Shown: piece after piece, positions 4,366-34,187 of the stretch
Layout of the letters: each line of letters opens with the position of its first letter
Position numbering within the stretch: position 1 is the stretch's first letter
Assembly (NCBI GenBank): GCA_964611835.1
Contig: CAZTDW010000004.1
Location: forward strand, 1 to 63,514
DNA length: 63,514 bases
Source of the DNA: an uncultured Rikenellaceae bacterium
GTDB lineage: Bacteria; Bacteroidota; Bacteroidia; Bacteroidales; VadinHA17
Direction of reading: 5' to 3'
Position numbers and translations under genes: made by a program
Notes under the pieces: generated by a model
What the model was told of the DNA's origin: nothing
The model's input: the letters and a program-made list of their open reading frames with translations, nothing else
Databases searched by the model: none

Positions 4366-4521
4366 AGGTATAAGCTCAGAGCATGGTTTCGGCAAATCTA
4401 TTTAAAAGTCTGTTCAATTCCAAACCTTTAGCTTACATACATGACTTGATCCGGAGATGGTGTGATGGACCGGCCCGGTTAAGCTGTCAATATGTGAGGG
4501 AGAAATTCTTATTATCAGTTT

Positions 4522-7385: not shown

Positions 7386-9425
7386 GTGTATTACAGGTTA
7401 TTTGCAGTTTTTTTCAGGATCCTTTTTACAGCAGTCGCTTTACCAACTGTTGTTATCGGGCAATCCACCGACAGCCTGCTCTATTTACTGGAAAACAACC
7501 TGGTTAAAGATGATTCAGCCCGATACGACCTGTTAAAAAAGATCATCAAGGGTACACCTGATTTGGAAAGCAAGCTTAAGTATTGTGACCAGGCTATTAA
7601 ACTTGCTGAAAATTTAAATATCATACTTCCTGATTCATATATCTTAAAAGGCACCTGTTATATGGATTCGGGGGACCTTGCGGCAGCTCTCGAATGGTTT
7701 TTCAGGGCAGCAGATTACTGTAAGAAACAGGACAATAACAAGGGGCTGGCAAGAGCATATACATTTTTAGCTGAAGCATACAACAAGCAGGGGAACCATA
7801 ATAATGAGAAATATTACCTCCGTAATGCCATTGAAATATTCAGGCACCAGAAGGATTCGCTTAAGCTTGCTAATATCCTGACTAATTTGGGATATGCATA
7901 TTACAGCATGGGGCAATATGACAGTGCGTTGATCTATTTTTCCGGCACAGCTGATATATACAAAGACATGGACCGAAAATCTGACTACGCGTATTGTATC
8001 GGAAATTCAGGACTGGTATATTCAAAACTATCAGATTTTAACCGTGCGGAAGACTACCTGCTTCAGGCAATAGAAATACTTACAAAACTGGATGATAAGC
8101 GGGCCGTCACCGAATATTTGATAGAATATGCAAACATTCTTCAGCATAAGGGAGAAATTGACAGGGCTGCCGCCGTTGCAAATCAGGCATTTGTCAGCTC
8201 CGTAAAGAACGGATATAAAGAATATGAACGAGATGCAGCCCATGAACTTGCCCGGCTGTATCAGTTTTCAGGAAGATATGACAGCGCTTTCCATTATCTG
8301 ACGGTGTATATAAATGCCAACGACAGTATCAGAAATGATCAAGCCATTCAGAAAATGGCCGATCTGCGTACAGAATTTGAAGTAGCCAGAAAGCAGGCGG
8401 AGGTAGAGATACTGGAGAAAAACAAGGTAACCCAGCGAATTGTCAATTTCGGACTGGCAGTCATCCTGTTGCTGGCCATAGGGCTAATACTGCTCTATTA
8501 TTCAAGCCTCAAACGTTCGAAAAAGCTTATGGCGGCTCTTGATGAACGCCGGATAATGCTGGAAAAACAGAGCAGCGAACTTAAAGAAATGAACAATACA
8601 ATTGTAAAAGCCCATGAAGAGCTGAAACAATTGTATGAGGTCACCAATGCACAGAAGGAAGAAATAATAAGCAGCATTAACTATGCGGAAAGAATCCAGA
8701 AAGCAGTCCTTCCACCGGAGGATTATATTAAAGAGTTAATTAATGAACATTTCATATTCTATCAGCCAAAAGAGATCGTAAGCGGTGATTTCTACTGGGT
8801 AAAGCAGATAAATCAGTATATCATTCTTGTTTCTGCTGACTGTACGGGTCATGGGGTACCGGGAGCCTTGATGAGCATGCTTGGTATAAGCTATCTGAAC
8901 GAAATTGTTCAGCGCAAGGAAATAACGATGGCAAATCAGGTCCTGAATGAGCTGAGAAAGGAAATCAAGCACTCCCTGCGGCAAACCGGGAAAAAAGAAG
9001 AATCAAGAGACGGGATTGATATGGCTTTGGTGGTTATTGATACTTCCACTGGTATGATGCAATATTCAGGTGCATTCAGTCCGCTTTATATTGTAAGCCA
9101 TGATAACGGTGAACCGGCACTAAAAGAATTAAAAGCTGATCAGATGCCGGTCGGGGTACACTTTTCGAGCGACAAGCCATTTACCAATCATGAATTTAAG
9201 CTTGAAATAGGAGATACTTTTTACATCTCAACGGATGGTTTTATTGATCAGACCGGGGGCAGTAACAAGACCAGATTCGGCAGCAATAATTTCAGGAAAC
9301 TTCTCCTGGAGATTCACGACAACCCCCTTTTCGAACAAAAGAAAATTTTACAGCAGACTCTTACAGACTGGATGGGAAATAATCCCCAGAGAGATGATAT
9401 CCTGGTGATAGGTGCAAGATTGTAA
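7386..9425 (+). CDS. TPR-repeat membrane sensor with C-terminal PP2C/SpoIIE-type phosphatase domain
   Basis: GTG start and N-terminal hydrophobic segment. About 7 TPR-like repeats, a TM helix (FGLAVILLLAIGLILLYY) and a coiled coil. SpoIIE motifs GDFYWV, ADCTGHGVPGALMS, STDGFIDQ and RDDILVIG. Confidence 0.8.
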   Translation: MYYRLFAVFFRILFTAVALPTVVIGQSTDSLLYLLENNLVKDDSARYDLLKKIIKGTPDLESKLKYCDQAIKLAENLNIILPDSYILKGTCYMDSGDLAAALEWFFRAADYCKKQDNNKGLARAYTFLAEAYNKQGNHNNEKYYLRNAIEIFRHQKDSLKLANILTNLGYAYYSMGQYDSALIYFSGTADIYKDMDRKSDYAYCIGNSGLVYSKLSDFNRAEDYLLQAIEILTKLDDKRAVTEYLIEYANILQHKGEIDRAAAVANQAFVSSVKNGYKEYERDAAHELARLYQFSGRYDSAFHYLTVYINANDSIRNDQAIQKMADLRTEFEVARKQAEVEILEKNKVTQRIVNFGLAVILLLAIGLILLYYSSLKRSKKLMAALDERRIMLEKQSSELKEMNNTIVKAHEELKQLYEVTNAQKEEIISSINYAERIQKAVLPPEDYIKELINEHFIFYQPKEIVSGDFYWVKQINQYIILVSADCTGHGVPGALMSMLGISYLNEIVQRKEITMANQVLNELRKEIKHSLRQTGKKEESRDGIDMALVVIDTSTGMMQYSGAFSPLYIVSHDNGEPALKELKADQMPVGVHFSSDKPFTNHEFKLEIGDTFYISTDGFIDQTGGSNKTRFGSNNFRKLLLEIHDNPLFEQKKILQQTLTDWMGNNPQRDDILVIGARL

Positions 9426-9468: not shown

Positions 9469-10293
9469 TTATAAAGGGTTAAGAACTATCCGCTTAAAAA
9501 AGATCTCAGCACCCTCAGACTGGATCTGTATCCGTCCTTTTTGGGGCTTTACATCAAAAGCATGGTTTACCAGAGTGCCATTGAGATATACAATGATCTC
9601 CTTATCTTTTACAATACATTCAATCCTGTTCCATTTTCCGACATGTTTTTCGATATCTTCTGTTCCTCGAAATCCTTTTATGTCTTTCCATCCCGGATCA
9701 CGTGCGAACCAGTTTATCCGACCTGAGTTTATGGTTACCTTATTTCCGGAAGGCTGAAATACGTGTGATCCACCTTGCTGCACAGGAGCAACGGGGCAGG
9801 TGACTGAGAAATTCCGGCTTCCATCACCGACAACGATAAAATCACCTGTTCCCCCTTCAATGATCTGACATTCTATCGAATGCATCCAGGTGCCGTCCGA
9901 ACCGCCATCCTCCCCGACAGAATGCAGGAGCAGCCCGCTGTCCCTGGCTTTATCAATCCTCGGTTCATAAGTTATCTCACCCCACTTGAATTCAACGGTT
10001 ATTTTATAATTTTCAAATTCATCATTTGATGTTATGCAACCAAACTCCTCTCCGGAAATTCTGATCATACGGTTCTGGACCGTAAATACCTTTTTGGGAT
10101 CCGTATTCTTTCCCCTGTCCTTAATATAGGTGTACCAGCCATCAAGGTTTTTACCGTTGAACAATTTTATCTCTAATTTTTTGCCATACTTTAATTCCGG
10201 ACCTGAAAGATCACCAGAGCTGGTAAAGCCGGTTCCCGGTATAACCAAAATCAGAAGGATCATTACCAGCAAATTCAACATGGGCCTTTTCAT
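9469..10293 (-). CDS. DUF1080 (3-keto-disaccharide hydrolase-like) domain protein, secreted
   Basis: Signal peptide. Contains LFNGKNLDGWYTY and a C-terminal IQIQSEGAEIFFKRI pattern, both typical of DUF1080. Confidence 0.7.
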   Translation of the reverse strand: MKRPMLNLLVMILLILVIPGTGFTSSGDLSGPELKYGKKLEIKLFNGKNLDGWYTYIKDRGKNTDPKKVFTVQNRMIRISGEEFGCITSNDEFENYKITVEFKWGEITYEPRIDKARDSGLLLHSVGEDGGSDGTWMHSIECQIIEGGTGDFIVVGDGSRNFSVTCPVAPVQQGGSHVFQPSGNKVTINSGRINWFARDPGWKDIKGFRGTEDIEKHVGKWNRIECIVKDKEIIVYLNGTLVNHAFDVKPQKGRIQIQSEGAEIFFKRIVLNPL

Positions 10294-12236: not shown

Positions 12237-13835
12237 CTAATCTTTCAAGCACCTTACTGCCATCCCATTCCGCTTGTTATAGTTATTATCATCAATAAAT
12301 ACAAAGTCATAATAAAGCATTATGATATTTGCCCGGTCCGTACTGAACCCGGTCGATGTCCACCAGTACCCGACCCAGCCATAGCTCATGGTGCTTCCCA
12401 TCTCATTTATCCTTCCGGAAGGAAGACCGGTCCAGCCCGACTCATTTGTAGCTCCTGCATTTGGTTCTTCCCAATGGCCGGTTCCGGCTTCCTTCATTTT
12501 ACCTCCCGTATTTGTTTCCCCACCAAGGAAGGCAATAAGATCAGTGTATTCATTATAAGCAGGGACATGCCACCCGGCGGGGCATAATTTCCCGGTTGAA
12601 ACCGTGTACCAGTTATACATGGCTCCGCAAAAATCTTTATAGACAGCGGGTGAATTAGCGTACCAGGCATAAGCGGGAGTTGAAAGGGTTGACCAGTCCT
12701 GCGGATTATTTACAAATGGTATGGATGCGCCATCATTATATCTGGTTGTCCTCAGATTCTCGGCCATCCAGGTCTGATTGCCGATAATAATGGTTTTGTA
12801 GACATTGCCATCAATGTCTGTTACAGAACCATAATTTAAATCCGGATTAAAATTTATTGGACCAAGGCCATCCGTTGTTTTAAAGGCAAGTTCATTACCG
12901 TATGTAATTCCTGCTTCAGTTACCGCATAAGCCCTGGCAAAATAGTCTGTACCGGGCAGCAGACCGTCAATATGGCTGTCAAATGATCCATCCCCTGAAC
13001 CATTTTCAGCATGCAAGCCTTCAACCGACGGATTTGATTCCGTTCCCCAGCAGACACCTCTGGCTGAAATTCCTGATCCTCCGTTGGCATTGACGATACT
13101 GCGGACCCCTGCCGTAGTCTGGCTTACGTCAAAAACCTCACTGGTGGTAACAACAGGAAAGATATGGAGTGTTGTGAAAGTTATCTCATTCCCGTATGAT
13201 GTTCCTGAGTTATTGGTAGCCCAGGCTCTTATATAATAGGTGGTCCCATAAGTCAATCCCGTCAGCACTGACGTAAAAATACCCGTTCCGGTTCCATCGC
13301 TTGTCTTGTTATCCGAAATTGAAGGATTGGGATTAATGCTCCAACAAACCCCTCTGGAAGTAACCGATGCACCTCCATCACTCACAATATTGCCTCCGGA
13401 TATTGCAGCTGAATGAGTTATTTCCGTAATCTCAGCTGTATTAAGTTCAGGAAGGGAAGCTTGCGGAGTTTCAAATGTCAGTTCATTACCGTATGAAGTT
13501 CCCTTATTGCCTGAAGCATATGCCCTGACATAGTATTTTGTTCCGGCTTCAAGTCCTGTGAGAAGACTGACAAAATCACCGGGCCCGGAACCATCAGCAG
13601 TATGGAAGCCCGTAAGCGCAGGATTTGGAGAAGTTCCCCAGCAGACCCCCCGTGCGGTTACATCTGCTGCCTCATCAGAAATCACATTACCTCCCGATAC
13701 CGCTGTATTCGCTGTTATGTCCGTAACAGGTTCGGTGGTAAGTATTGGAATCCCCGGGTCCTTTTTACAGCCATTGACTGAAATGACAGCAACGGCAAGG
13801 ATCACAATTGCCAGAAAATAAGCTGGTTTTTTCAT
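12237..13835 (-). CDS. FISUMP (Fibrobacter succinogenes major paralogous) domain lipoprotein with three N-terminal ~95-aa repeats
   Basis: Lipobox (SVNGC). Three tandem repeats each contain ARGVCWGT..NP and TSYGNE(L/I)TF.T. C-terminal domain has DIDGNVYKTIIIGNQTWMAENLR, CPAGWHVP and AVRCLKD. Confidence 0.75.
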   Translation of the reverse strand: MKKPAYFLAIVILAVAVISVNGCKKDPGIPILTTEPVTDITANTAVSGGNVISDEAADVTARGVCWGTSPNPALTGFHTADGSGPGDFVSLLTGLEAGTKYYVRAYASGNKGTSYGNELTFETPQASLPELNTAEITEITHSAAISGGNIVSDGGASVTSRGVCWSINPNPSISDNKTSDGTGTGIFTSVLTGLTYGTTYYIRAWATNNSGTSYGNEITFTTLHIFPVVTTSEVFDVSQTTAGVRSIVNANGGSGISARGVCWGTESNPSVEGLHAENGSGDGSFDSHIDGLLPGTDYFARAYAVTEAGITYGNELAFKTTDGLGPINFNPDLNYGSVTDIDGNVYKTIIIGNQTWMAENLRTTRYNDGASIPFVNNPQDWSTLSTPAYAWYANSPAVYKDFCGAMYNWYTVSTGKLCPAGWHVPAYNEYTDLIAFLGGETNTGGKMKEAGTGHWEEPNAGATNESGWTGLPSGRINEMGSTMSYGWVGYWWTSTGFSTDRANIIMLYYDFVFIDDNNYNKRNGMAVRCLKD

Positions 13836-14221: not shown

Positions 14222-16141
14222 ATGAAAACGATCGTTGACCTTCTGGAGAACAGTGCACAGAAGTTTAGTGACAATCCCTATCTTCTTGAAAAAAGGGGAG
14301 ACAAGTATGAAGCTGTAACTTTCCGGGAAACCAGGCAGCAGGTCTTTAAGGTTGCGGCAGGACTTTTAACTCTTGGGATCAAGAAAGGCGACAGGATAGC
14401 ATTATTGTCTGAATCCAGGACTGACTGGGTGGTAAGTGAACTTGGTATTTTGTACACAGGTGCCGTGAGTGTTCCGCTTTCTATCTTATTAAAGGAAAGC
14501 AATGATCTGAAGTTCAGGTTAAACCATTCAGAATCAAGATGGGTGATAGTTTCAGGTCTCCAGTATGACAAAATAAATTCCATCAGGAAAGACCTTCAGA
14601 GCCTTGAAAAAGTGATTCTTCTTGATGAGAGGGAGACCTATGACACTGATGAGATATTCATAGGGAAGGTCAGGAGTCTGGGAGAAGAATATCTGAGCAG
14701 GAACCCGGATAAATTCACCGATACATTCAGATCGGTGGGTCCTGATGATTATGCAAATATTTGTTACACTTCGGGAACGACAGCTGATCCCAAGGGAATA
14801 ATCCTGACCCACAGGAATTACACAGCCAATATTGAGCAGGCACTGACACTTTTTGACGTTCCTGAATGGTGGTCGACACTGCTGATACTTCCCTGGGATC
14901 ATTCATTCGCCCATACGGTCGGAATTTATATAATGCTGGCTGTCGGAGCAAGTCTTGCGGCAGTTCAGTCAGGAAAATCCTACCTTGACAGTCTGAAGCA
15001 TATTCCTCAAAATATTAAGGAGATAAGACCTGTTTTTCTCTTCAGTGCACCGGCCCTGGCGAAAAACCTGAGAAAAGGAATTGAAAAAGGTATCAGGGAC
15101 AAAGGATCTGTCATTGAAAAGCTGTTCAGACATGCATTAAAGATTGCATATTGTTATAACGGCATTGGCTTGGACCGCGGGAAAGGATTCAGGGTCTTTC
15201 TGAAACCGCCTTACTTTCTTTATGATCTTATTTTGTTCAAAAAGATCAGGGCAAGCTTTGGCGGAAGATTAAAGTTTTTCATCGGAGGAGCAGCATTGCT
15301 TGATATAGAACTCCAGAAATTCTTCCTGGCAATCGGGATCCCGATGCTCCAGGGATATGGCCTGACGGAGGCTTCGCCTGTGATTTCAGGAAATACAGAA
15401 AAAAGATTCAAATTAGGATCCTCCGGATTGCTGGTTAAAAACCTGAATCTGAAAATATGCGATGAGGATGGTAATGAGCTTGCTATGGGGGAAAAAGGGG
15501 AGATAGTCATACGTGGAGAAAATGTAATGAAAGGATACTGGAAGAACGAAACTGCCACCAGGGATGCCATACGCAATGGATGGCTGTTTACGGGGGATAT
15601 GGGATACATGGACCAGGACGGATTCCTGTTCGTGCTTGGAAGGTATAAAAGTCTTCTTATTTCAGACGATGGTGAAAAGTACAGTCCGGAAGGAATAGAA
15701 GAAACAATAACTGACAGGTCTGTCTTTATCGATCAGATGATGCTGTATAATAACCAGAACAAATACACTGTTGCCCTGGTGGTGCCAAACAGTGATGCAT
15801 TGATAAGATGGGCCAGAAGCAAAAATATCGGTCTTACTGATGAAACTGGTTTTACCGCAGTATTAAATGAATTAAAATCTGTTTTCAACCAGTATATGCC
15901 TGAAGGGGTATATGGTGACCTTTTCCCGTCAAGGTGGTTACCTTCTGCCATTGCTGTTCTCGATGAACCATTCAATGCCGATAACAAGCAATTGAACAGC
16001 CTCGGGAAGATGGTAAGGGCAAAGATCATTGAAAAACATAGGGATACGATAGAATACCTTTACACACCTGAAGCAAAGAATATCATTAATCCCAGGAATC
16101 TTGAATCAATAAAGAAACTGCTAAAGCCAGCTTCCATGTAG
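14222..16141 (+). CDS. Long-chain acyl-CoA synthetase (AMP-dependent synthetase/ligase)
   Basis: AMP-binding motifs YTSGTTADPKGIILTHRN, GYGLTE and TGDMGYMDQDGFLFVLGRYKS. 639 aa. Confidence 0.85.
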   Translation: MKTIVDLLENSAQKFSDNPYLLEKRGDKYEAVTFRETRQQVFKVAAGLLTLGIKKGDRIALLSESRTDWVVSELGILYTGAVSVPLSILLKESNDLKFRLNHSESRWVIVSGLQYDKINSIRKDLQSLEKVILLDERETYDTDEIFIGKVRSLGEEYLSRNPDKFTDTFRSVGPDDYANICYTSGTTADPKGIILTHRNYTANIEQALTLFDVPEWWSTLLILPWDHSFAHTVGIYIMLAVGASLAAVQSGKSYLDSLKHIPQNIKEIRPVFLFSAPALAKNLRKGIEKGIRDKGSVIEKLFRHALKIAYCYNGIGLDRGKGFRVFLKPPYFLYDLILFKKIRASFGGRLKFFIGGAALLDIELQKFFLAIGIPMLQGYGLTEASPVISGNTEKRFKLGSSGLLVKNLNLKICDEDGNELAMGEKGEIVIRGENVMKGYWKNETATRDAIRNGWLFTGDMGYMDQDGFLFVLGRYKSLLISDDGEKYSPEGIEETITDRSVFIDQMMLYNNQNKYTVALVVPNSDALIRWARSKNIGLTDETGFTAVLNELKSVFNQYMPEGVYGDLFPSRWLPSAIAVLDEPFNADNKQLNSLGKMVRAKIIEKHRDTIEYLYTPEAKNIINPRNLESIKKLLKPASM

Positions 16142-16297: not shown

Positions 16298-18631
16298 CTA
16301 ATTATTTTTCTGCCTTGCAACAGCCTGTTCGGCTTCCTTTAAATCATTTTCAAGGTCATTACTGTAGCCTGTCCATTTTTCGAAGACTTCCTTTAAAATA
16401 AGCAGTGCTTCTTCATGTTTGCCAAGCTTATGAAGAGCCAGTCCTTTCATCCAGAGAAGGTCAAGGTCGTCAGGAGCCCTTTCAAGGCCTTTCATGGCTA
16501 ATTCAAGGCCTTCATTTATATTGATCCCCGATCTTATTAATATCCGGCTTAGGTTATAGATCCGGGCAGTGTTTTCAGGTTCAAGATCATAGGCTTTCCT
16601 GGAATATTTCTCTGCTGTAATTGTATCCTTTCCCGATAAATACAAATAAGCAACAGCCAACTCTTCAAATGATTTGGAGTAATTATTTCCTGATAAATAT
16701 GATCTGAGCTCAGAAATATTGTTTCCGGCAGCAAGGGTATCTCCCAGCATAACATTACTGCTTCCCTGATATGCAATTAACCAGGGATCATTTGGCTTGA
16801 TCTGTAATCCCTTTTGACTAATCCTTATTGCTGATTCCGGTTTATCAGCCAGAAGCAATGCCTCGCAATAAGCTCTGTAATATCTGTCATATTTCCAGTC
16901 ACTACCTCTTTCAAGGCTGATTTCTTCGACTTTTTCAAATGCCTCCACTGCCTTATCATACAAATCCGAAAAATTTGAATAGGTCAAACCAATGTCTAAC
17001 CATAATAATCGGGATTCTATTCCGGACTTTTCAAGTAAATCACAATACCGTAGTATATCCTGCTGGCTTTTACCATAATAACAAGCATGCCACATTCCCA
17101 GCCAGTTTTGATACTTTGCCGGGAGTCTTTCCCTCCCTTCATAAGCTTTTTGAGTCCATAATACAGATTGATCCCAACTCCCGCTTGAACCCCAGAAACT
17201 ATAAGCAAACGCAATGTAAAATTTAGCAAAAGTAAAGGTTGAGTCAATCTCCAGGGCTCTTTTCAATGATACGACAGCAGACTCGTAATCCGAAGTTAAG
17301 ATCAGGTTTACTCCTTCAATAAAATACCTGTATGCTTCGGCTGAATTCGGATAAACCTCCCTGAAATCATTATCCGCTTTTTGTTCAAGGGACCTGATCT
17401 CGAGGTAGTCTTTCAGTTTATTGCATAATGAATCTGTGAGCGCAAGATATTCTGAGGACTTTAAATCCCCTTCAACCTGATTGGTATAGACAATGTCCCC
17501 GGTTTTGGTATCAACCAGCTTGGAGAGGATCCGGTATCTGCCTCCCGTCCCCTGGAAACTGCCTGATATATATGTTTCAGCATTGACCTTTTCAGCCACC
17601 TTTCTGGCCCGGGAGGGTGAAATTCCTGCCGTGAAAACCTCATGCATGCTCTCCATTGCTTCAAACATGGTCTGGTCGTCGCGAAGGGCAAGTTCGGAAG
17701 AACCGGCAAGCCCGTTGATAATCAGGGATGAAATACCCCGCTGGAACCAATTCAGCGTGGTATCCCCGGTGAGATTCTCAAAGGGCATAACGGCAATTGA
17801 AATTCTCCCGTCCGTGTCTCTTATGGCTTCAAATTTGTCCTTTTTGAATATTATCGGATATAGTAAAATTCCCGCTATTATTATCAATGCGCTTATGGCA
17901 AGAGGAGCGAGCAGCTTATATTTCCCCCGGGAGGTATGTTTTGCAAATAACGATTTTCTATCTTCATTTACAGATTCTCCGGGCAAGACCCTGGTCTGAT
18001 TGTGTTCCCTCCCTTCCCGGACCTGTCCTGCCTTTATTCCAAGAATGATCTCTTTTATCGCATGTGCTGTTTTGTTTATCTGGTCATTATAGTAGGTTTT
18101 GTTGAGATTGTCCTGCGGGTGTTCCTCATTCACTCGCAGGGGCCGGTTTACCCCTGAGGATGTTCTGAACACAAAATCCATTGCCCTCAGTACGGTACCT
18201 GTTTCCTTCTCGAACAGCTTTACGTCCTCCGGTTCAATATCATGGATCCGGATGGGCAGAATCCTGCTTGCTACATTTCCGCTCCTGAGTTTTATATCCT
18301 TTCCATAGGGATCGTTTTTAACCATCCCGAGAAAAGGCAAAAACTCATACTGCCATGCATAACTGCCGGGATCGCAATAGGTCTGAGAAAGAACAGGAAT
18401 GAATATGAGGCATTTCAGTTTGTCCTCAAGGCTCTTTTCCACATGGTGCGTTTCCTGAAGGCGGTCGTGGGGATTTTCATCGAAATATACTGAAACATCT
18501 TCCTTAAATGTAGCTTCCAGTTCGGCCTTCAGGGCTTCAACGAAATTACTAACCCACTTGTCGCCTTTATTATCCTTCGGGCGGTAGGAAATAAAGATGT
18601 CATAATTATATCCTTCAACGATGCCTGACAT
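16298..18631 (-). CDS. TIR domain / single TM / TolB-N-like / TPR membrane protein (paralog 1)
   Basis: The N-terminus has the TIR signature YDIFISYRPKD and CLIFIPVLSQTY..SYAWQYEF (Glu retained), with no signal peptide. TM helix LLAPLAISALIIIAGILLYPIIF. Then ISIAVMPFENLTGD, followed by about 400 aa of TPR repeats. Confidence 0.8.
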   Translation of the reverse strand: MSGIVEGYNYDIFISYRPKDNKGDKWVSNFVEALKAELEATFKEDVSVYFDENPHDRLQETHHVEKSLEDKLKCLIFIPVLSQTYCDPGSYAWQYEFLPFLGMVKNDPYGKDIKLRSGNVASRILPIRIHDIEPEDVKLFEKETGTVLRAMDFVFRTSSGVNRPLRVNEEHPQDNLNKTYYNDQINKTAHAIKEIILGIKAGQVREGREHNQTRVLPGESVNEDRKSLFAKHTSRGKYKLLAPLAISALIIIAGILLYPIIFKKDKFEAIRDTDGRISIAVMPFENLTGDTTLNWFQRGISSLIINGLAGSSELALRDDQTMFEAMESMHEVFTAGISPSRARKVAEKVNAETYISGSFQGTGGRYRILSKLVDTKTGDIVYTNQVEGDLKSSEYLALTDSLCNKLKDYLEIRSLEQKADNDFREVYPNSAEAYRYFIEGVNLILTSDYESAVVSLKRALEIDSTFTFAKFYIAFAYSFWGSSGSWDQSVLWTQKAYEGRERLPAKYQNWLGMWHACYYGKSQQDILRYCDLLEKSGIESRLLWLDIGLTYSNFSDLYDKAVEAFEKVEEISLERGSDWKYDRYYRAYCEALLLADKPESAIRISQKGLQIKPNDPWLIAYQGSSNVMLGDTLAAGNNISELRSYLSGNNYSKSFEELAVAYLYLSGKDTITAEKYSRKAYDLEPENTARIYNLSRILIRSGININEGLELAMKGLERAPDDLDLLWMKGLALHKLGKHEEALLILKEVFEKWTGYSNDLENDLKEAEQAVARQKNN

Positions 18632-18656: not shown

Positions 18657-18685
18657 AATTTAAACCTTAATTAAACCAAAGTCAA
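18657..18685 (-). promoter_or_regulatory. Promoter of TIR paralog 1 (TTGACT-N17-TAAATTTG)
   Basis: Minus strand reads TTGACTTTGGTTTAATTAAGGTTTAAATTTG, a perfect Bacteroidota -7 box TAnnTTTG, about 25 nt upstream of the ATG. Nearly identical to the region upstream of TIR paralog 2. Confidence 0.6.
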
Positions 18686-28037: not shown

Positions 28038-30173
28038 TTATTTACCGGGGAGATTGAGTTTCTTAACAAATTCATCGAATCGGGGATCACCGTGCAGATT
28101 AGTGCCCCAATCCATTACAGCTACCCAGGGAAGCCAGATATGGCGAGGTTCGAATGCAAGCCATTTGAATGCTTCATCTTTGTTATTCAGAGCTGAATTA
28201 AGCATAACCTGGCCCAATGCAACGAATGGATCAGGTCTCAGTTTATTCAGGCGATCCAACATCTCCCTGGCTTCACTTTCCCTGCCGGACCTTGCATAGG
28301 TAATACCCAGTTTGAATATCCATTTTGGGTATTTTTCTGCAAGTTTCTTATGTGCTGCAATAGCTTCATCAACATTCCCCATTGCCAGATAAGCATCACC
28401 CAAACCCCATAAACCCTGGTTGTAGTCAGGACGTATCTCAAGAGATTTCAATGCTTCCTGCAGGGCTTTTTCTTTCTTTCCAATATGAAGATATAACCAA
28501 CCCAGCTGTGCTGCTATTTCCGGGGCAAACGGATCATATTTTCTTGCCAGCAGGTTTTCCGCCAGGGCTTCATCGTTCCTGCCAAATAATAAAAGAGCCC
28601 ATGCATAATGAAAATGAGCGTATGCATTGTTCGGATTGATACTTATAGCTTTTCTGAAATATTTTTCTGCTTCCTTGAAATTCCACATAGAATATTCGTA
28701 TGCTTGGGCAAGTGCGAAATAAGTTTCGGCCAGGGTAGAGTCAAGCTTAATTGCCTGTAAAGCTGCAGCTTCACCCTTAATCATGGCATCACCCGGGTCC
28801 TGTGGGCCATGGGCAATTTCAAAATATCCTGAAGCTAGCGCAGCATGAGCAAATGCATCTGCCGGATCAAGATTAATTGCCTGATTCAGATAATCAAATC
28901 CCTGTTTAATAGACTCCGGGGTTTCATGCCTCAAACTGTACATACCCCTTACATAAAGTTTGTATGTTTCGGGATTTATCGTCTGCGGAGCCGATAGTGC
29001 CGCAAGATTCTCATTTGTCAGGTCAAATCCTATTTTGCCTGCTATCTCGTTGGCAATATTGTGATGAAGTTTGAAGACATTCCTCAGGTCACTTTTAAAT
29101 GGCCGGGTCCAAATCAGTTTTTCTTCAGGATAAGCCTGGATCAGCCTGAGTTGAAGATAAATTGAGTCTGAAACATTTAAAACAGATCCCTCGATAATAT
29201 AATCAATATCAATTTCATGTGCCATTTCCGGTATGGGTCTGGATGAACCGGCAATTGCAGCAGCAGTTCTTCCTGAAAGAACCCGCAGAGGTCTGACCTG
29301 GCTTATCATGCAAAGTTCAGAAACCATAGCATCATTCTGTCCTTGTACAAGATAATCCTGGTCCTGATTCCCGGTATTATTTTTAAAGGGTAATACTACA
29401 ATTGATTTCTCAGGTTCCACCTGGCCGGTAAGCAATTCAGGAATGAAGAGTAAACCCAAAATTGTCATCACCAGTAAAATAGCTGAAACGGCTATTATAG
29501 CTTTAATTTTGGATTTCCTTGGTAATGCATGGGAATCAACCCATTTCCCCGGAACCTCTTCGGGCATTAGTTCATTCTGCCCGATAGAGGTAATAATCTC
29601 CCTTATTGCCAGGGCAATTTTATTGATCTGGTTCCTGTAATTTGTTTTGTTAAGATTTTTCTCTTCACTGTCTTTTGGAGTAAGCGATCTGTTTATGCCG
29701 GGTTCCTTATAAATAAATTCAACTCCCCTCAATACACCTCCCAGAACCATCTCACATTCCTTAATATCATTAATTTCGTGATCGTGTATTCTGACCGGCA
29801 TCACCCGTGATGCCACGTTACCACCACGCAATTTAACCTTTAAGCCCAGCTTATCCTGACTGGCCAACCCGACAAATGCCTTAAACTCATGCTCCCAGGC
29901 GAATGATTTCGGATCGCAGTATGTACGGGAGATGACGGGAATAAATATCAGGCATTTCAGCTTTTCCTTCAGCGATTCATCAACATCATGTGTCTCCAGG
30001 AGTCCGTCATGAGGATTAATATCAAAGTATAGGGTAATTTCTTCCTTAAAGGTAGCCTCCAGCTCCTTTTGAAGGTTGTCGACAAATTCTGTTACCCAGC
30101 CGTCATATTTGTTGTCTTTCTGGCGGTAGCTGATGAAGATGTCGTAATTATATCCCTGGATAAGGCTTGGCAT
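28038..30173 (-). CDS. TIR domain / single TM / TolB-N-like / TPR membrane protein (paralog 2)
   Basis: YDIFISYRQKD and CLIFIPVISRTY..SFAWEHEF (Glu retained). TM helix AIIAVSAILLVMTILGLLFI. Then KSIVVLPFKNNTGN...DYIIEGSV, followed by TPR repeats. The TIR region is about 60% identical to paralog 1 by eye. Confidence 0.8.
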   Translation of the reverse strand: MPSLIQGYNYDIFISYRQKDNKYDGWVTEFVDNLQKELEATFKEEITLYFDINPHDGLLETHDVDESLKEKLKCLIFIPVISRTYCDPKSFAWEHEFKAFVGLASQDKLGLKVKLRGGNVASRVMPVRIHDHEINDIKECEMVLGGVLRGVEFIYKEPGINRSLTPKDSEEKNLNKTNYRNQINKIALAIREIITSIGQNELMPEEVPGKWVDSHALPRKSKIKAIIAVSAILLVMTILGLLFIPELLTGQVEPEKSIVVLPFKNNTGNQDQDYLVQGQNDAMVSELCMISQVRPLRVLSGRTAAAIAGSSRPIPEMAHEIDIDYIIEGSVLNVSDSIYLQLRLIQAYPEEKLIWTRPFKSDLRNVFKLHHNIANEIAGKIGFDLTNENLAALSAPQTINPETYKLYVRGMYSLRHETPESIKQGFDYLNQAINLDPADAFAHAALASGYFEIAHGPQDPGDAMIKGEAAALQAIKLDSTLAETYFALAQAYEYSMWNFKEAEKYFRKAISINPNNAYAHFHYAWALLLFGRNDEALAENLLARKYDPFAPEIAAQLGWLYLHIGKKEKALQEALKSLEIRPDYNQGLWGLGDAYLAMGNVDEAIAAHKKLAEKYPKWIFKLGITYARSGRESEAREMLDRLNKLRPDPFVALGQVMLNSALNNKDEAFKWLAFEPRHIWLPWVAVMDWGTNLHGDPRFDEFVKKLNLPGK

Positions 30174-32176: not shown

Positions 32177-32878
32177 TTAATCCTTCAGACAGCGAACCGA
32201 AAGGCCCCCGTTCTTATCCATTCCGGTATCACTGTCACCCACTTCTCCATTATAATTGTTGATGTAAAAATAATATGCACGATCAGAAGGATATTCTGTT
32301 GACGTCCACCATACACCGCCGTATCCAAAATCCCAGAATTTAAATGTTGAACTAAGATACCCTCCAGGTAATATTGATAACCCGGTTTCGTTCGTGGCGT
32401 CAACATTTGGCTCATACCATAAACCGTCTCCTCCTTCAATCGTCCCGGTCGTTTTTAATTTCCCCCCGGCAACAGATTATCCCCCCAGAAAATTAACCAG
32501 TACTGCCCATTAAGCCTCTGATGGTAAATTCCATCCTTTGGGGCAAAGTTTTCCGCTATGAACGGCATACCAGTTATACAATGCCCCATACGGATCTTTA
32601 TTGCTGATGTCTTTATCATACCAGCAATAAGCAGGTTCTGAAGTATTACTCCATGCCGTTTGTTCAGTAATATAAGATATTGCAGTTCCATCATTTAATT
32701 TAGTGGTTTTCAGGTTTTCCACCAGCCAAACCTGAGTCCCAATGGTAACCGACGTGTAAATATTACCATCTGCATCCATTATTTTATTGTCTTCTTCATT
32801 TTTCTTACAGCTACTTATTATTAAGAGAATTGAAGCAATAAAAAACATGCAACTCCTGAGTGATGATTTCCCTTTCAT
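32177..32878 (-). pseudogene. FISUMP-domain lipoprotein gene interrupted by two in-frame TAA codons
   Basis: A single reading frame runs from ATG 32878 to TAA 32177-32179, with internal TAA codons at 32510-32512 and 32477-32479. The translation reads ...CPKGWNLPSEA*WAVLVNFLGG*SVAGGKLK...GGLSVRCLKD. Confidence 0.75.
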
Positions 32879-33260: not shown

Positions 33261-34187
33261 TTATTGGATCATCCCCATGATCCATTCAAGGTAATTGGAA
33301 GTTATTTCAGATGAACTGACTTTCAGGCTATTCTCAAATTCACGCCTGACATTTTTTTTCTCCTTTTCATTTACAGACGAATCGGAGGCTTTTGCAACAA
33401 TATCGAAAAGTACCTGTTTGGCTTCGCTTTTCAACATCGGATCATTACCTGACATCATATCAGCCATTGGCTGGATCATCACAGCTCCCAGCTTCACTGC
33501 CGACCGGCAGGAAACCTGTCGGACCTGCCAGTCCGAACTATTAAATCCCCCGATGACATAATCCGGTTCAGAATCGAGATCCCGTATACGGATATTTCTG
33601 AATCTGGCAAACTGGTCGGGTTTTTCGGCATGATTGCCCTGGAATCCGATATATCCGGTGAGTGGTTTGCCGGCCAGTGTCTTTACAGTATCAATATCAG
33701 CTATGGTTGTAACCTGGTCATTTACCGAAACACTTACTATATTACGGTCACATCTGATTTCCATTTTATACCACTTTCCAGTCGTTTCATCCGGCCTGTT
33801 TGTAACAGCTACATGGCCGTATAAAGAGCCTGTGCAATGGAGATCATCCCTCCATGGCGTCCAGGGTGCAAGAAGCTGGACCTCAAATCCTGTTTCCGGT
33901 ACCCCGGGATCACGTCTTATAAGGACCCCGCTGTTGCCAACATCCGATAACAGGAATTCAAGCTGAAGAATAAAATTACTGTAAGTTTTTTCCGACCAGA
34001 TATCGGTCCCGGATCCGGAACTGCGGGTAATCAATTCTCCATCAATGACTTCAAATGAGCCTGGCATCTGAAGGGTCCAGTTTGTCAGATCTTTACCATT
34101 AAACAGTGATGTGAATTCCTGTTTTTGTGAATCACAGGAGACTGTGAGTATTGAAATAATAAAAGTGATCAGTATGATGTTTTTCAT
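33261..34187 (-). CDS. DUF1080 (3-keto-disaccharide hydrolase-like) domain protein with C-terminal helical extension
   Basis: Lipoprotein signal (LTVSC), LFNGKDLTNWTLQ and IGFQGNH...FRNIRIRDL. Confidence 0.7.
   Translation of the reverse strand: MKNIILITFIISILTVSCDSQKQEFTSLFNGKDLTNWTLQMPGSFEVIDGELITRSSGSGTDIWSEKTYSNFILQLEFLLSDVGNSGVLIRRDPGVPETGFEVQLLAPWTPWRDDLHCTGSLYGHVAVTNRPDETTGKWYKMEIRCDRNIVSVSVNDQVTTIADIDTVKTLAGKPLTGYIGFQGNHAEKPDQFARFRNIRIRDLDSEPDYVIGGFNSSDWQVRQVSCRSAVKLGAVMIQPMADMMSGNDPMLKSEAKQVLFDIVAKASDSSVNEKEKKNVRREFENSLKVSSSEITSNYLEWIMGMIQ

Follow-up and report, generated by a model that had tools for sequence, protein, structure and literature searches.

The gene at 16298..18631 of the window (the whole stretch of 63,514 nucleotides analysed here, from an uncultured Rikenellaceae bacterium) raises the question of whether its product is a membrane receptor with a cytoplasmic TIR domain and, if so, what the output of such a receptor would be. 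To our knowledge, nearly all TIR domains known from bacteria are cytoplasmic components of anti-phage systems, and transmembrane TIR receptors are regarded as an animal invention. The open reading frame, which a preliminary description had delimited correctly while leaving its strand unstated, lies on the minus strand, starts with ATG, and encodes 777 residues followed by a stop codon. All motifs quoted in that description were found in the translation, namely YDIFISYR (residues 10–17), CLIFIPVLS (74–82), and SYAWQYEF (90–97), together with SIAVMPFENLTGD (278–290) and TYISGSF (353–359) in the TolB-N-like part. Because the upstream neighbour is divergent (18970/19051, plus strand) and the downstream neighbour convergent (14222–16141, plus strand), the gene is probably monocistronic. 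The window genes around it encode glycoside hydrolases, an AMP-binding enzyme, a deacetylase, VIT1, SDRs, and similar proteins, and PADLOC gave no real match for the 777-residue protein. The absence of an adjacent defence partner, as first described, holds both at this locus, where the neighbours are metabolic, and for 119 flanking genes of relatives.

Residues 1–211 (17999..18631, minus strand) are predicted to be cytoplasmic and to form a divergent, enlarged TIR-fold domain. In HMM searches with Pfam, NCBIfam, and PADLOC, this part showed hints of a TIR but stayed below threshold: Pfam TIR_2 (PF13676) scored 13.5 bits with the full protein and 16.9 bits with residues 1–235 against a cut-off of 28, the aligned stretch being residues 12–88, beyond which the aC region falls, and the same weak match recurred in 77 of 80 relatives (best E value, 2.2e-4). 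In the AF2 model of the domain (pLDDT 82, pTM 0.79), the structural elements follow one another in TIR order from bA to aE, that is, bA (10–15), aA (26–41), bB (47–49), the BB loop (50–63), aB (64–72), bC (74–81), aC (91–105), an inserted hairpin (112–122), bD (~124–130), aD (134–144), bE (~153–156), a conserved GVNRPL loop, and aE as a long helix (181–211). A Foldseek search of the PDB with this model returned TIR domains at all of ranks 1–31 (E values, 5.8e-5 to 1e-2), including the NADases RUN1, RPP1, BtpA, and SARM1 and also the TIR domains of MyD88, TLR, TRIF, and IL-1R, at TM-scores of only 0.45–0.6; flavodoxin-like reductases entered the list from rank 32 onward.

Profile–profile comparison by hhalign matched the family profile to the canonical TIR_2 profile with E values of 2e-4 (local) and 3.5e-5 (global, 143 columns) at modest probabilities of 45–47%. 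The alignment to a canonical bacterial TIR profile was colinear across the whole fold from bA to aE, with bD reading ILPIRIHDI against IIPxRIEDV. Against PDB sequences, the family profile yielded one TIR match, flax L6/L7 (E value, 1.1), and two unrelated proteins scored slightly better. The hhalign comparisons with single sequences were discarded: with P0064, a metagenomic protein described below, the alignment was confined to the bA region (14 columns), with SARM1 it covered bA–bB only (33 columns), and forcing it to run globally against SARM1 gave no meaningful result (E value, 0.85). The Box 1 consensus at bA, (F/Y)D(V/I)F(I/L)SY, is matched by Y10-D-I-F-I-S-Y-R17, which is invariant or nearly so in the family; DIFISYR differs from SARM1 D563-VFISYR569 solely at I12/V564, and SVYFD pairs with SVFID. 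The TIR assignment made in the preliminary description missed the Pfam threshold but is supported by AF2, Foldseek, and hhalign; it was borne out, although it had overlooked that the domain represents a divergent subfamily of ~200 residues beneath Pfam recognition. Collectively, the modelled structure and the profile alignments strongly support the view that the N-terminal ~210 residues are a divergent, enlarged TIR domain.

The glutamate earlier singled out as the retained catalytic residue is E96 (codon 18344..18346, minus strand) in helix aC, which lines up with the position of the catalytic Glu in TIR NADases and is invariant in alignments of 80, 32, and 64 sequences. The S-x-W-x-x-E string, which had been presented as the TIR motif, calls for one correction: its Trp and Glu are spaced as W93-x-x-E96, one residue closer than in the canonical W-x-x-x-E of, for example, SARM1 (W638...E642). 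Because the single-sequence alignments covered only the bA region or bA–bB, E96 was mapped by way of a canonical TIR profile of 66 sequences (A4), corresponding to E75 of A4 and thence to SARM1 E642 (probability of the A4–SARM1 step, 93%), a transitive mapping that passes through the profile alignment of 45–47% probability. Moreover, S15-Y16-R17 and D51 pair with SARM1 S567-Y568-R569 and D594, and all of them are invariant in the family. A retained catalytic Glu is necessary but not sufficient for TIR activity, and many TIRs that retain it act as scaffolds; judging from the sequence, NAD cleavage or formation of a TIR-derived messenger by the N-terminal domain is plausible.

A variable linker (residues 212–237; 17921..17998, minus strand), recognised by low pLDDT (<50 over residues 209–235) and by a pairwise identity averaging only 0.18 across 110 homologs, connects the TIR domain to the membrane. 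It is followed by a single transmembrane helix, YKLLAPLAISALIIIAGILLYPIIF (residues 238–262; 17846..17920, minus strand), assigned by hydropathy. Residues ~238–262 are the sole segment with KD19 above 1.6 (peak, 2.67), and KD19 reaches at most 0.23 in the first 60 residues, so that there is no hydrophobic N-terminal segment; hydropathy thus agrees with the one helix and missing signal peptide originally proposed. The net charges flanking the helix (N side, +3; C side, +1) mildly favour N-in, the outside domains are of periplasmic types, and the topology is predicted to be N-in/C-out, that of a putative single-pass type II inner-membrane receptor.

On the other side of the membrane, residues 270–420 (17372..17824, minus strand) are assigned by AF2, Foldseek, and NCBIfam to a predicted periplasmic alpha/beta domain of the TolB-N-terminal/LpoB-C/PelC/GNA1162-like type. 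The AF2 model of residues 263–420 (pLDDT 88) matched LpoB (E value, 3.4e-8; TMt, 0.64–0.67), TolB (2.4e-7), GNA1162, PelC, FlgT, and CsgG in Foldseek, and NCBIfam TolB covers residues 272–396 with an E value of 9.5e-5, a score below the cut-off set for the full-length protein, as a lone domain would give. The remainder, residues 421–777 (16301..17371, minus strand), is a TPR solenoid, also predicted to be periplasmic, in which Pfam TPRs above cut-off occupy residues ~447–750 (TPR_8, 38.4 against 25.7; TPR_12, 32.5 against 30.1; TPR_19, 30.7 against 25; and TPR_14); it is the most variable folded portion of the protein. The Foldseek, NCBIfam, and Pfam matches bear out the periplasmic-type TolB-N-like domain and TPRs of the first description.

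That description had also placed the outside module on cyclase and winged-helix outputs elsewhere, and such proteins were indeed found in rhizobia, where it lies behind N-terminal adenylate/guanylate cyclase and winged-helix outputs. In these rhizobial receptors (WP_064251585.1 and WP_304501468.1; plasmid genes; relatives of NCBIfam TIGR04510), the matched regions are collinear with the present protein, and the common order of cytoplasmic N-terminal output, TolB-N-like domain, and TPRs implies the same outside-to-inside one-component signalling logic; the direction of signalling is assumed here by analogy with the cyclase and wHTH proteins. The output is a class III cyclase or a DNA-binding domain in the rhizobial receptors, which are from Alphaproteobacteria, and a TIR domain in the present protein from Bacteroidota, and the shared module is only 21–28% identical between them. 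P0064 and P0069, metagenomic proteins of 716 residues, carry a canonical Pfam TIR/TIR_2 domain of ~140 residues and of the CWIAPRD type, in contrast to the divergent one described here, on a TM-TolBN-TPR chassis 61–64% identical to that of the present protein. At the level of sequence comparison, they are a natural domain swap, TIR for TIR.

A paralog of 711 residues is encoded in the same window (28038..30173, minus strand; BLASTP, 38% identity over residues 1–405, E value 1.5e-77), with a TIR-like domain of the same kind (55% identical over 210 residues), a transmembrane segment at residues ~223–246, a TolB-N-like domain, and a different TPR tail. The family comprises 1352 clusters at 50% identity, with at least 11 copies in one MAG and tandem arrays of up to 5 genes, and its members are co-directional in 28 of 29 multi-gene loci. 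Among 110 homologs, conservation is highest in the TIR part (mean pairwise identity, 0.71, against 0.41 for the TPR part), and the insertions absent from canonical TIRs (GVNRPL and DNLNKT) are conserved throughout the family. The outside domains of 64 members include TPRs (45), PD40 propellers (8), DPPIV_N (5), and FGE-sulfatase domains (3). This is a large, multi-copy, and unstudied family of predicted receptors of uncultured Bacteroidota. In the databases searched, its members are labelled only as 'TPR repeat protein', 'TolB-like protein', or 'hypothetical protein', so that Pfam-based TIR surveys would miss the family.

The size and copy number of the family, its tandem arrays, the second copy in the window, and the preferential conservation of the cytoplasmic domain were all absent from the preliminary description. 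Many matches of 200–350 residues that might be taken for stand-alone N-terminal-domain proteins were rejected as such: the three inspected, from long contigs, have non-homologous, junk-like tails typical of frameshifts, and others break off mid-domain in the alignment.

When all ORFs of 84 loci were clustered, no conserved non-family neighbour was found, the best being Fib_succ_major in 12 of the 84, and no TIR-containing or other conserved partner gene occurred near 83 loci. PADLOC analysis of the immediate flanks (119 genes) gave only scattered candidate-family matches, no model matching more than 5 of the 119, and no candidate effector or reader of a TIR product was found among these flanks and the ORFs of the 84 loci.

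The explanation that we prefer, and to which we attach roughly even confidence as a whole, is a membrane receptor with a clustering-activated TIR domain and an NAD-derived output. A periplasmic ligand or envelope cue would alter the oligomeric state of the outside module, the ligand possibly being a peptide or glycan because this module has TPRs. The altered oligomeric state would bring the TIR domains together and thereby switch on NAD+ cleavage, as in other TIR enzymes, and the product would be an ADPR-derived messenger that diffuses and is recognised by a partner whose gene lies at another site in the genome. Such a messenger appears more likely than lethal depletion of NAD+, because an almost identical TIR recurs in many paralogs whose sensors differ, because the chassis otherwise carries messenger-making cyclases, and because the genes sit in ordinary chromosomal contexts.

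Depletion of NAD+ would be the purpose if the proteins were envelope-triggered suicide or defence NADases, in which phage adsorption or injection, envelope damage, or a competitor toxin leads to growth arrest or cell death by abortive infection and each paralog is a separate pattern-recognition specificity. The NAD-depleting SARM1 and BtpA are among the best structural matches, a diversified tandem repertoire of variable sensors on a constant TIR resembles immune receptor families, and some members carry FGE-sulfatase-type domains, which Kaur et al. (PMC8195603) tie to conflict systems with TIR effectors. We nevertheless consider such a function unlikely, since the genes lie outside defence islands, the protein itself lacks a PADLOC match, and the flanks show only scattered PADLOC candidates (≤5/119 per model); moreover, the chassis otherwise bears regulatory outputs (cyclase and wHTH), TIR conservation so strong is unusual for arms-race genes, and carrying at least 11 potentially lethal triggers would burden a genome. 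The extreme conservation over the whole 200-residue domain, including GVNRPL and DNLNKT, would also fit protein–protein surfaces, and thus a non-enzymatic adaptor that recruits a soluble partner by homotypic or heterotypic assembly upon receptor clustering, in the manner of TLR and MyD88. The presence of MyD88, TLR, TRIF, and IL-1R TIRs in the Foldseek matches and the non-canonical Trp–Glu spacing speak for this reading as well, whereas E96, S15-Y16-R17, and D51, invariant at SARM1 active-site positions, speak against it, as does the lack of a TIR-containing or other conserved partner gene near 83 loci. Almost all characterised bacterial TIRs known to us are enzymes, which also counts against an adaptor, and we regard it as quite unlikely.

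The remaining two alternatives concern what the two ends of the protein are. The closest folds of residues 263–420 are those of the envelope-assembly proteins LpoB, TolB, PelC, FlgT, and CsgG, TPRs are common in such machines, and glycan-active enzymes are often neighbours; the periplasmic part might accordingly be an envelope or polysaccharide-export assembly factor working inside-out, with the TIR-like domain as a nucleotide-binding regulator and not as an output. However, the fusion of the module to classical outputs (cyclase and wHTH) argues for a sensor, at least 10 paralogs per genome with varied outside domains suit sensing better, and the genes are not consistently linked to operons for envelope or export functions, which makes such a scaffold very improbable. 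We give hardly any credence to the alternative that the N-terminal domain is some other flavodoxin-like three-layer fold of unrelated function, whose likeness to TIR is convergent. It would agree with the sub-threshold scores in every curated HMM library and with the flavodoxin-like reductases from Foldseek rank 32 onward, but not with the exclusive occurrence of TIRs at ranks 1–31, the single difference (I12/V564) between DIFISYR and SARM1 DVFISYR in Box 1, the colinearity of the profile–profile alignment through bD and aE, or the canonical TIR that occupies the same chassis in P0064 and P0069.

Comparison with known systems sets the proposed receptor apart in several respects. With the SARM1-type, bacterial, and plant TIR NADases (SARM1, BtpA/TcpB, RUN1, and RPP1), the domain has in common the predicted fold, the aligned aC Glu, and a BB loop predicted to be flexible; it differs from them in its length (~200 residues against ~140, with four family-wide insertions in aA, after aC, in aD, and before aE), in having WxxE instead of WxxxE, in its score below the Pfam gathering threshold, and in its anchoring to the membrane by a C-terminal helix. 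Thoeris ThsB, TIR-STING, TIR-SAVED, SPARTA, and Cat1 likewise have a TIR with Glu at the catalytic position and a possible nucleotide-signal output. In contrast to these defence TIRs, the present protein has no adjacent effector gene, defence island, or PADLOC match, is membrane-anchored with an extracytoplasmic sensor, and is highly multi-copy. The animal Toll-like and IL-1 receptors resemble the family in being multi-gene and partly tandem, with variable sensors and a conserved TIR, but they use LRR or Ig domains where the family has TPR repeats and an extra TolB-N-like domain, and the polarity is reversed, the TIR being N-terminal here (type II) and C-terminal there (type I); set against theirs, the TIR of this family looks enzyme-like. 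The resemblance is one of logic only, and there is no evidence for shared descent of the whole architecture.

A Toll-like-receptor-style sensor repertoire in environmental Bacteroidota (and Ignavibacteria), in which at least 10 paralogs per genome combine varied TPR, propeller, and FGE sensors with one nearly invariant, membrane-anchored TIR enzyme making an NAD-derived messenger, is put forward tentatively, as a possibility on the doubtful side. If true, it would constitute a new class of transmembrane signal transduction beside histidine kinases, receptor cyclases, and ToxR-like regulators, and sensing of peptides or RiPPs would be possible, one sub-clade having a small ORF and a B12-radical-SAM gene. 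The family would show TIR serving as the output of ordinary-looking, highly expanded membrane receptors of bacteria, in which a cyclase or a DNA-binding domain can take its place, and would offer a simple system in which receptor clustering across the membrane leads to activation of a TIR enzyme. If the domain is active, NAD-derived nucleotides would be candidate general second messengers for extracytoplasmic cues in bacteria. Full-text literature searches found no description of a bacterial receptor that spans the membrane with its TIR in the cytoplasm and its sensor in the periplasm, an earlier mention in Burroughs et al. 2015 (NAR) being possible, and the term-matching passages of a 2025 study that systematically surveyed defence islands for TIR signalling systems do not describe such an architecture.

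As to the immediate flanks of the relatives, a B12-radical-SAM gene occurs in 6 of 119, all confined to one syntenic sub-clade, and this same sub-clade is linked to a small ORF together with the B12-radical-SAM gene.

The reading frame at 16298–18631 on the minus strand, put forward in the preliminary description, proved to be a real gene that starts with ATG and encodes 777 residues (hereafter the main protein), and all the motifs quoted there were found in its translation: YDIFISYR at aa 10–17, CLIFIPVLS at aa 74–82, SYAWQYEF at aa 90–97, SIAVMPFENLTGD at aa 278–290, and TYISGSF at aa 353–359. Hundreds of homologs begin with the same pattern, M-x-S-(I/L)-I-x-G-Y-x-Y-D, which supports the choice of start codon. 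The gene lies between a divergent GH39-like gene upstream (18970/19051, plus strand) and a convergent gene for an AMP-binding enzyme downstream (14222–16141, plus strand), and is probably transcribed as a single-gene unit. Inspection by eye also revealed TAAATTTG at 18662–18655 on the minus strand, ending 24 nt upstream of the ATG, which fits the Bacteroidetes −7 consensus TAnnTTTG and may be a chance match, and TTTG at 18680–18677 on the same strand, 14 nt further upstream.

The N-terminal TIR domain claimed for this protein was borne out by predicted structure, profile-profile comparison, and a module swap, but not at the curated thresholds of Pfam, NCBIfam, and PADLOC. Thus, Pfam TIR_2 scored 13.5–16.9 bits against a cut-off of 28, the TIR-like NCBIfam model FxsC_Nterm gave an E value of 0.055, and PADLOC returned no real match; the family profile searched against PDB sequences reached just E 1.1, to the TIR domain of flax L6/L7. 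The assignment is nevertheless made because four independent lines of evidence agree. The weak TIR_2 match recurred over aa ~12–88 in 77 of 80 family members, with no other family recurring in more than 8 of them. An AF2 model of aa 1–235, built from 80 sequences (pLDDT 82, pTM 0.79), has its elements in TIR order, and its Foldseek matches in the PDB were TIR domains throughout ranks 1–31 (RUN1, RPP1, BtpA, SARM1, SNC1, MyD88, TRIF, and TLRs; E 5.8e-5 to 1e-2, target TM-score ~0.45–0.6), flavodoxin-like reductases appearing from rank 32 onward. Against A4, a canonical bacterial TIR profile of 66 sequences that all match Pfam TIR/TIR_2 (66/66), the family profile aligned locally over 97 columns (E 2e-4) and globally over 143 columns (E 3.5e-5); the global alignment was colinear from bA through bD (ILPIRIHDI vs IIPxRIEDV), bE, the xxPL loop, and aE, with four conserved insertions in the family. 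Lastly, the 716-residue metagenomic proteins P0064 and P0069 are 61–64% identical to the main protein over the TM, TolB-N-like, and TPR parts and carry a canonical ~140-residue Pfam TIR/TIR_2 domain in place of the divergent ~200-residue one, which reads as a naturally occurring exchange of equivalent modules. The main protein is thus placed in the TIR superfamily on its predicted fold and motifs, though under the curated Pfam threshold, and we conclude that its N-terminal domain represents a TIR subfamily, divergent and enlarged to ~200 aa, that current Pfam models fail to capture.

The Glu said to occupy the catalytic position was also recovered. Three alignments, of 80, 32, and 64 sequences (the 64 sampled from 50%-identity clusters), all show E96 as invariant, and in the profile alignments this residue pairs with the invariant E75 of A4, which in turn pairs with SARM1 E642 (hhalign probability 93%; SARM1 sequence and numbering checked against PDB entries); the mapping of E96 onto E642 is transitive, via an alignment of 45–47% probability. 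In the local alignment to SARM1, S15-Y16-R17 correspond to S567-Y568-R569 and D51 to D594; in SARM1 these residues line the NAD site. The motif surrounding the main protein's Glu is W93-x-x-E96, as against W-x-x-x-E. Activity requires a Glu here, but the Glu does not suffice alone.

The remainder of the described architecture is likewise supported. Hydropathy analysis gave a single TM helix at aa 238–262 and no hydrophobic stretch at the N-terminus, in line with the claimed absence of a signal peptide, and the flanking charges mildly favour N-in. After the helix, NCBIfam TolB matched weakly at aa 272–396 (E 9.5e-5), and an AlphaFold2 model of aa 263–420 (71 sequences, pLDDT 88) found its best PDB structural matches in the LpoB C-domain (E 3.4e-8) and the TolB N-domain (2.4e-7), followed by GNA1162, PelC, FlgT, and CsgG, all of them periplasmic and several ring-forming. 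The TPRs at aa ~447–750 are the sole part above cut-off in curated HMM libraries. Since periplasmic-type domains come after the helix, the natural reading is a predicted N-in/C-out topology.

The same scaffold serves cyclase and winged-helix outputs, as had been proposed. The aa 263–777 region matched 342 plasmid records, mostly rhizobial, and the genes annotated at the matches are labelled 'adenylate/guanylate cyclase domain-containing protein' or 'winged helix-turn-helix domain-containing tetratricopeptide repeat protein'. Of two such genes that were inspected, one encodes a 739-residue cyclase that matches from about residue 231 and the other a 525-residue wHTH protein that matches from about residue 127; both have the output N-terminal, as in the main protein. 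NCBIfam TIGR04510, 'peptide modification system cyclase', also matched at aa 315–516; this family, which has the sensor module too, belongs to a peptide-modification cassette. These comparisons confirm the earlier view of a known sensor scaffold that has acquired a TIR output.

The main protein belongs to a large family. A paralog of 711 residues, 9.4 kb away on the same strand (28038–30173, minus), is 38% identical to it over aa 1–405 and 55% in the TIR part, whereas its TPR tail is unrelated; it has AWEHEF at aa 92–97, a TM helix at aa ~223–246, and a TolB-N-like domain starting with SIVVLPF at aa 257. Among 1.84 billion representatives, the N-terminal-domain profile matched 1352 clusters at 50% identity (919 at E<=1e-10, 558 at E<=1e-30), and in the best 150 matches, mostly proteins of 650–850 aa, the domain begins at residue 1 in 148 and at residues 17 and 29 in the other two. 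The many apparent stand-alone proteins of 200–350 aa most probably arose from frameshifts or truncation and would swell any tally of 'TIR-only' proteins; three that were inspected on long-read contigs (P0125, P0131, and P0169) have non-homologous, junk-like tails. Species-representative genomes contain at least 577 family loci, of which the best 80 are all from uncultured Bacteroidota MAGs (Bacteroidales, 'Rikenellaceae', Cyclobacteriaceae, Cytophagales, and Chryseolinea); one full-length relative is labelled Ignavibacteria. Among the loci retrieved, one MAG holds at least 11 copies, and 2–5 copies stand within ±6 kb at 29 of 83 loci, co-directionally at 28 of these 29. Among 110 full-length homologs, the TIR part had the highest mean pairwise identity (0.71), ahead of the TolB-N-like domain (0.54), the TPRs (0.41), the TM helix (0.37), and the linker (0.18). 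The outside domains of 64 diverse members were TPR (45), PD40 propeller (8), DPPIV_N (5), and FGE-sulfatase (3), the latter three replacing or extending the TPRs; in Aravind-lab papers (PMC8195603), the FGE-sulfatase domain is considered as a sensor of conflict systems.

The window is ordinary chromosomal DNA of ~41% GC, encoding glycoside hydrolases, a sulfatase, oxidoreductases, hydrolases, and a peroxiredoxin; we saw neither mobile nor defence genes in it. Clustering of every ORF of 84 loci yielded no conserved non-family neighbour, the most frequent being Fib_succ_major (PF09603) at 12 of 84. Pfam hits among 119 immediately flanking genes were led by Radical_SAM with B12-binding (6), Fib_succ_major (3), and AAA_14 (3), and PADLOC gave scattered candidate families at no more than 5 of 119 per model. 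The reported absence of an adjacent defence partner therefore holds in the window and for the family as a whole.

The architecture, the TIR fold, the conserved Glu at the catalytic position, the exchangeable outputs on the chassis (TM, TolB-N-like, and TPR parts), and the multi-copy receptor-family behaviour are shown or strongly supported; NAD hydrolysis or a TIR-derived messenger, the function suggested earlier, we infer by analogy. A periplasmic cue would alter how the outside module oligomerises; this would cluster the TIR domains, which would then cleave NAD+. Ring formation is seen in several of the proteins structurally related to the TolB-N-like domain. Clustering of TIR domains activates NAD+ cleavage in SARM1, plant TNLs, TIR-STING, and AbTir. 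As the output, we weakly prefer an ADPR-type messenger that diffuses to a lethal loss of NAD+, because a single, almost unvarying TIR serves many sensors, the chassis elsewhere bears a cyclase that makes a messenger, and the genes stand outside defence contexts; a suicide or defence NADase appears unlikely. An adaptor TIR without enzymatic activity, at odds with the invariance of the Glu, is quite unlikely. An envelope scaffold under inside-out control, which the LpoB- and TolB-like matches might suggest, would be a very unlikely role beside the exchangeable signalling outputs, and a non-TIR fold, consistent with the sub-threshold HMM scores, is the least likely given the Foldseek and profile matches.

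In its workings, the putative messenger-making receptor is closest to a receptor-type cyclase, with TIR taking the place of the cyclase. In logic, it resembles Toll-like receptors, combining a solenoid outside with a TIR inside, joined by one TM helix, and forming a diversified family with tandem copies, but its polarity is reversed and its repeats are TPR rather than LRR. Because it has neither an effector partner nor a PADLOC match, the system is not of the Thoeris, CBASS, Pycsar, or SPARTA type. Full-text literature searches gave no account of a bacterial receptor in the membrane that pairs a cytoplasmic TIR with a periplasmic sensor, although an earlier in-silico mention is possible, and searching a TIR survey and a 2025 TIR-system screen by term likewise gave no such architecture. 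We class the domain as a divergent TIR subfamily that is new, as is the receptor context in which it occurs; the finding goes beyond one odd fusion, since it brings to light a large receptor family, TLR-like and so far unannotated.

Several minor observations concern the neighbourhoods. Fib_succ_major genes at 12237–13835 and 32510–32878 (both minus) lie 2–4 kb from both family genes of the window, and another occurs at 4383–5453 of the relative's locus L003; this proximity could be chance in genomes rich in Fib_succ_major. A 587-residue TPR and SpoIIE/PP2C phosphatase protein, a further signalling protein of TPR type, is encoded at 7662–9425 (plus), 7 kb from the main gene. Two 3-keto-disaccharide hydrolase (PF06439) paralogs, at 9469–10293 and 33261–34187 (both minus), lie 3–6 kb from one or other receptor gene, and PF06439 occurs twice among the 119 flanking genes of relatives. 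In a sub-clade of 805–817-residue members, a weakly conserved ORF of 66–85 aa and then a B12-binding radical SAM gene of ~530 aa come after the receptor gene, all on one strand (L039:5314–7203, L050:8448–10379, L054:8488–10387, L062:8490–10555, L064:8494–10445, and L075:2494–4384). This linkage may reflect descent only, since flanking synteny suggests orthologous regions; the small ORF and the radical SAM gene offer a lead to a candidate (modified) peptide ligand.
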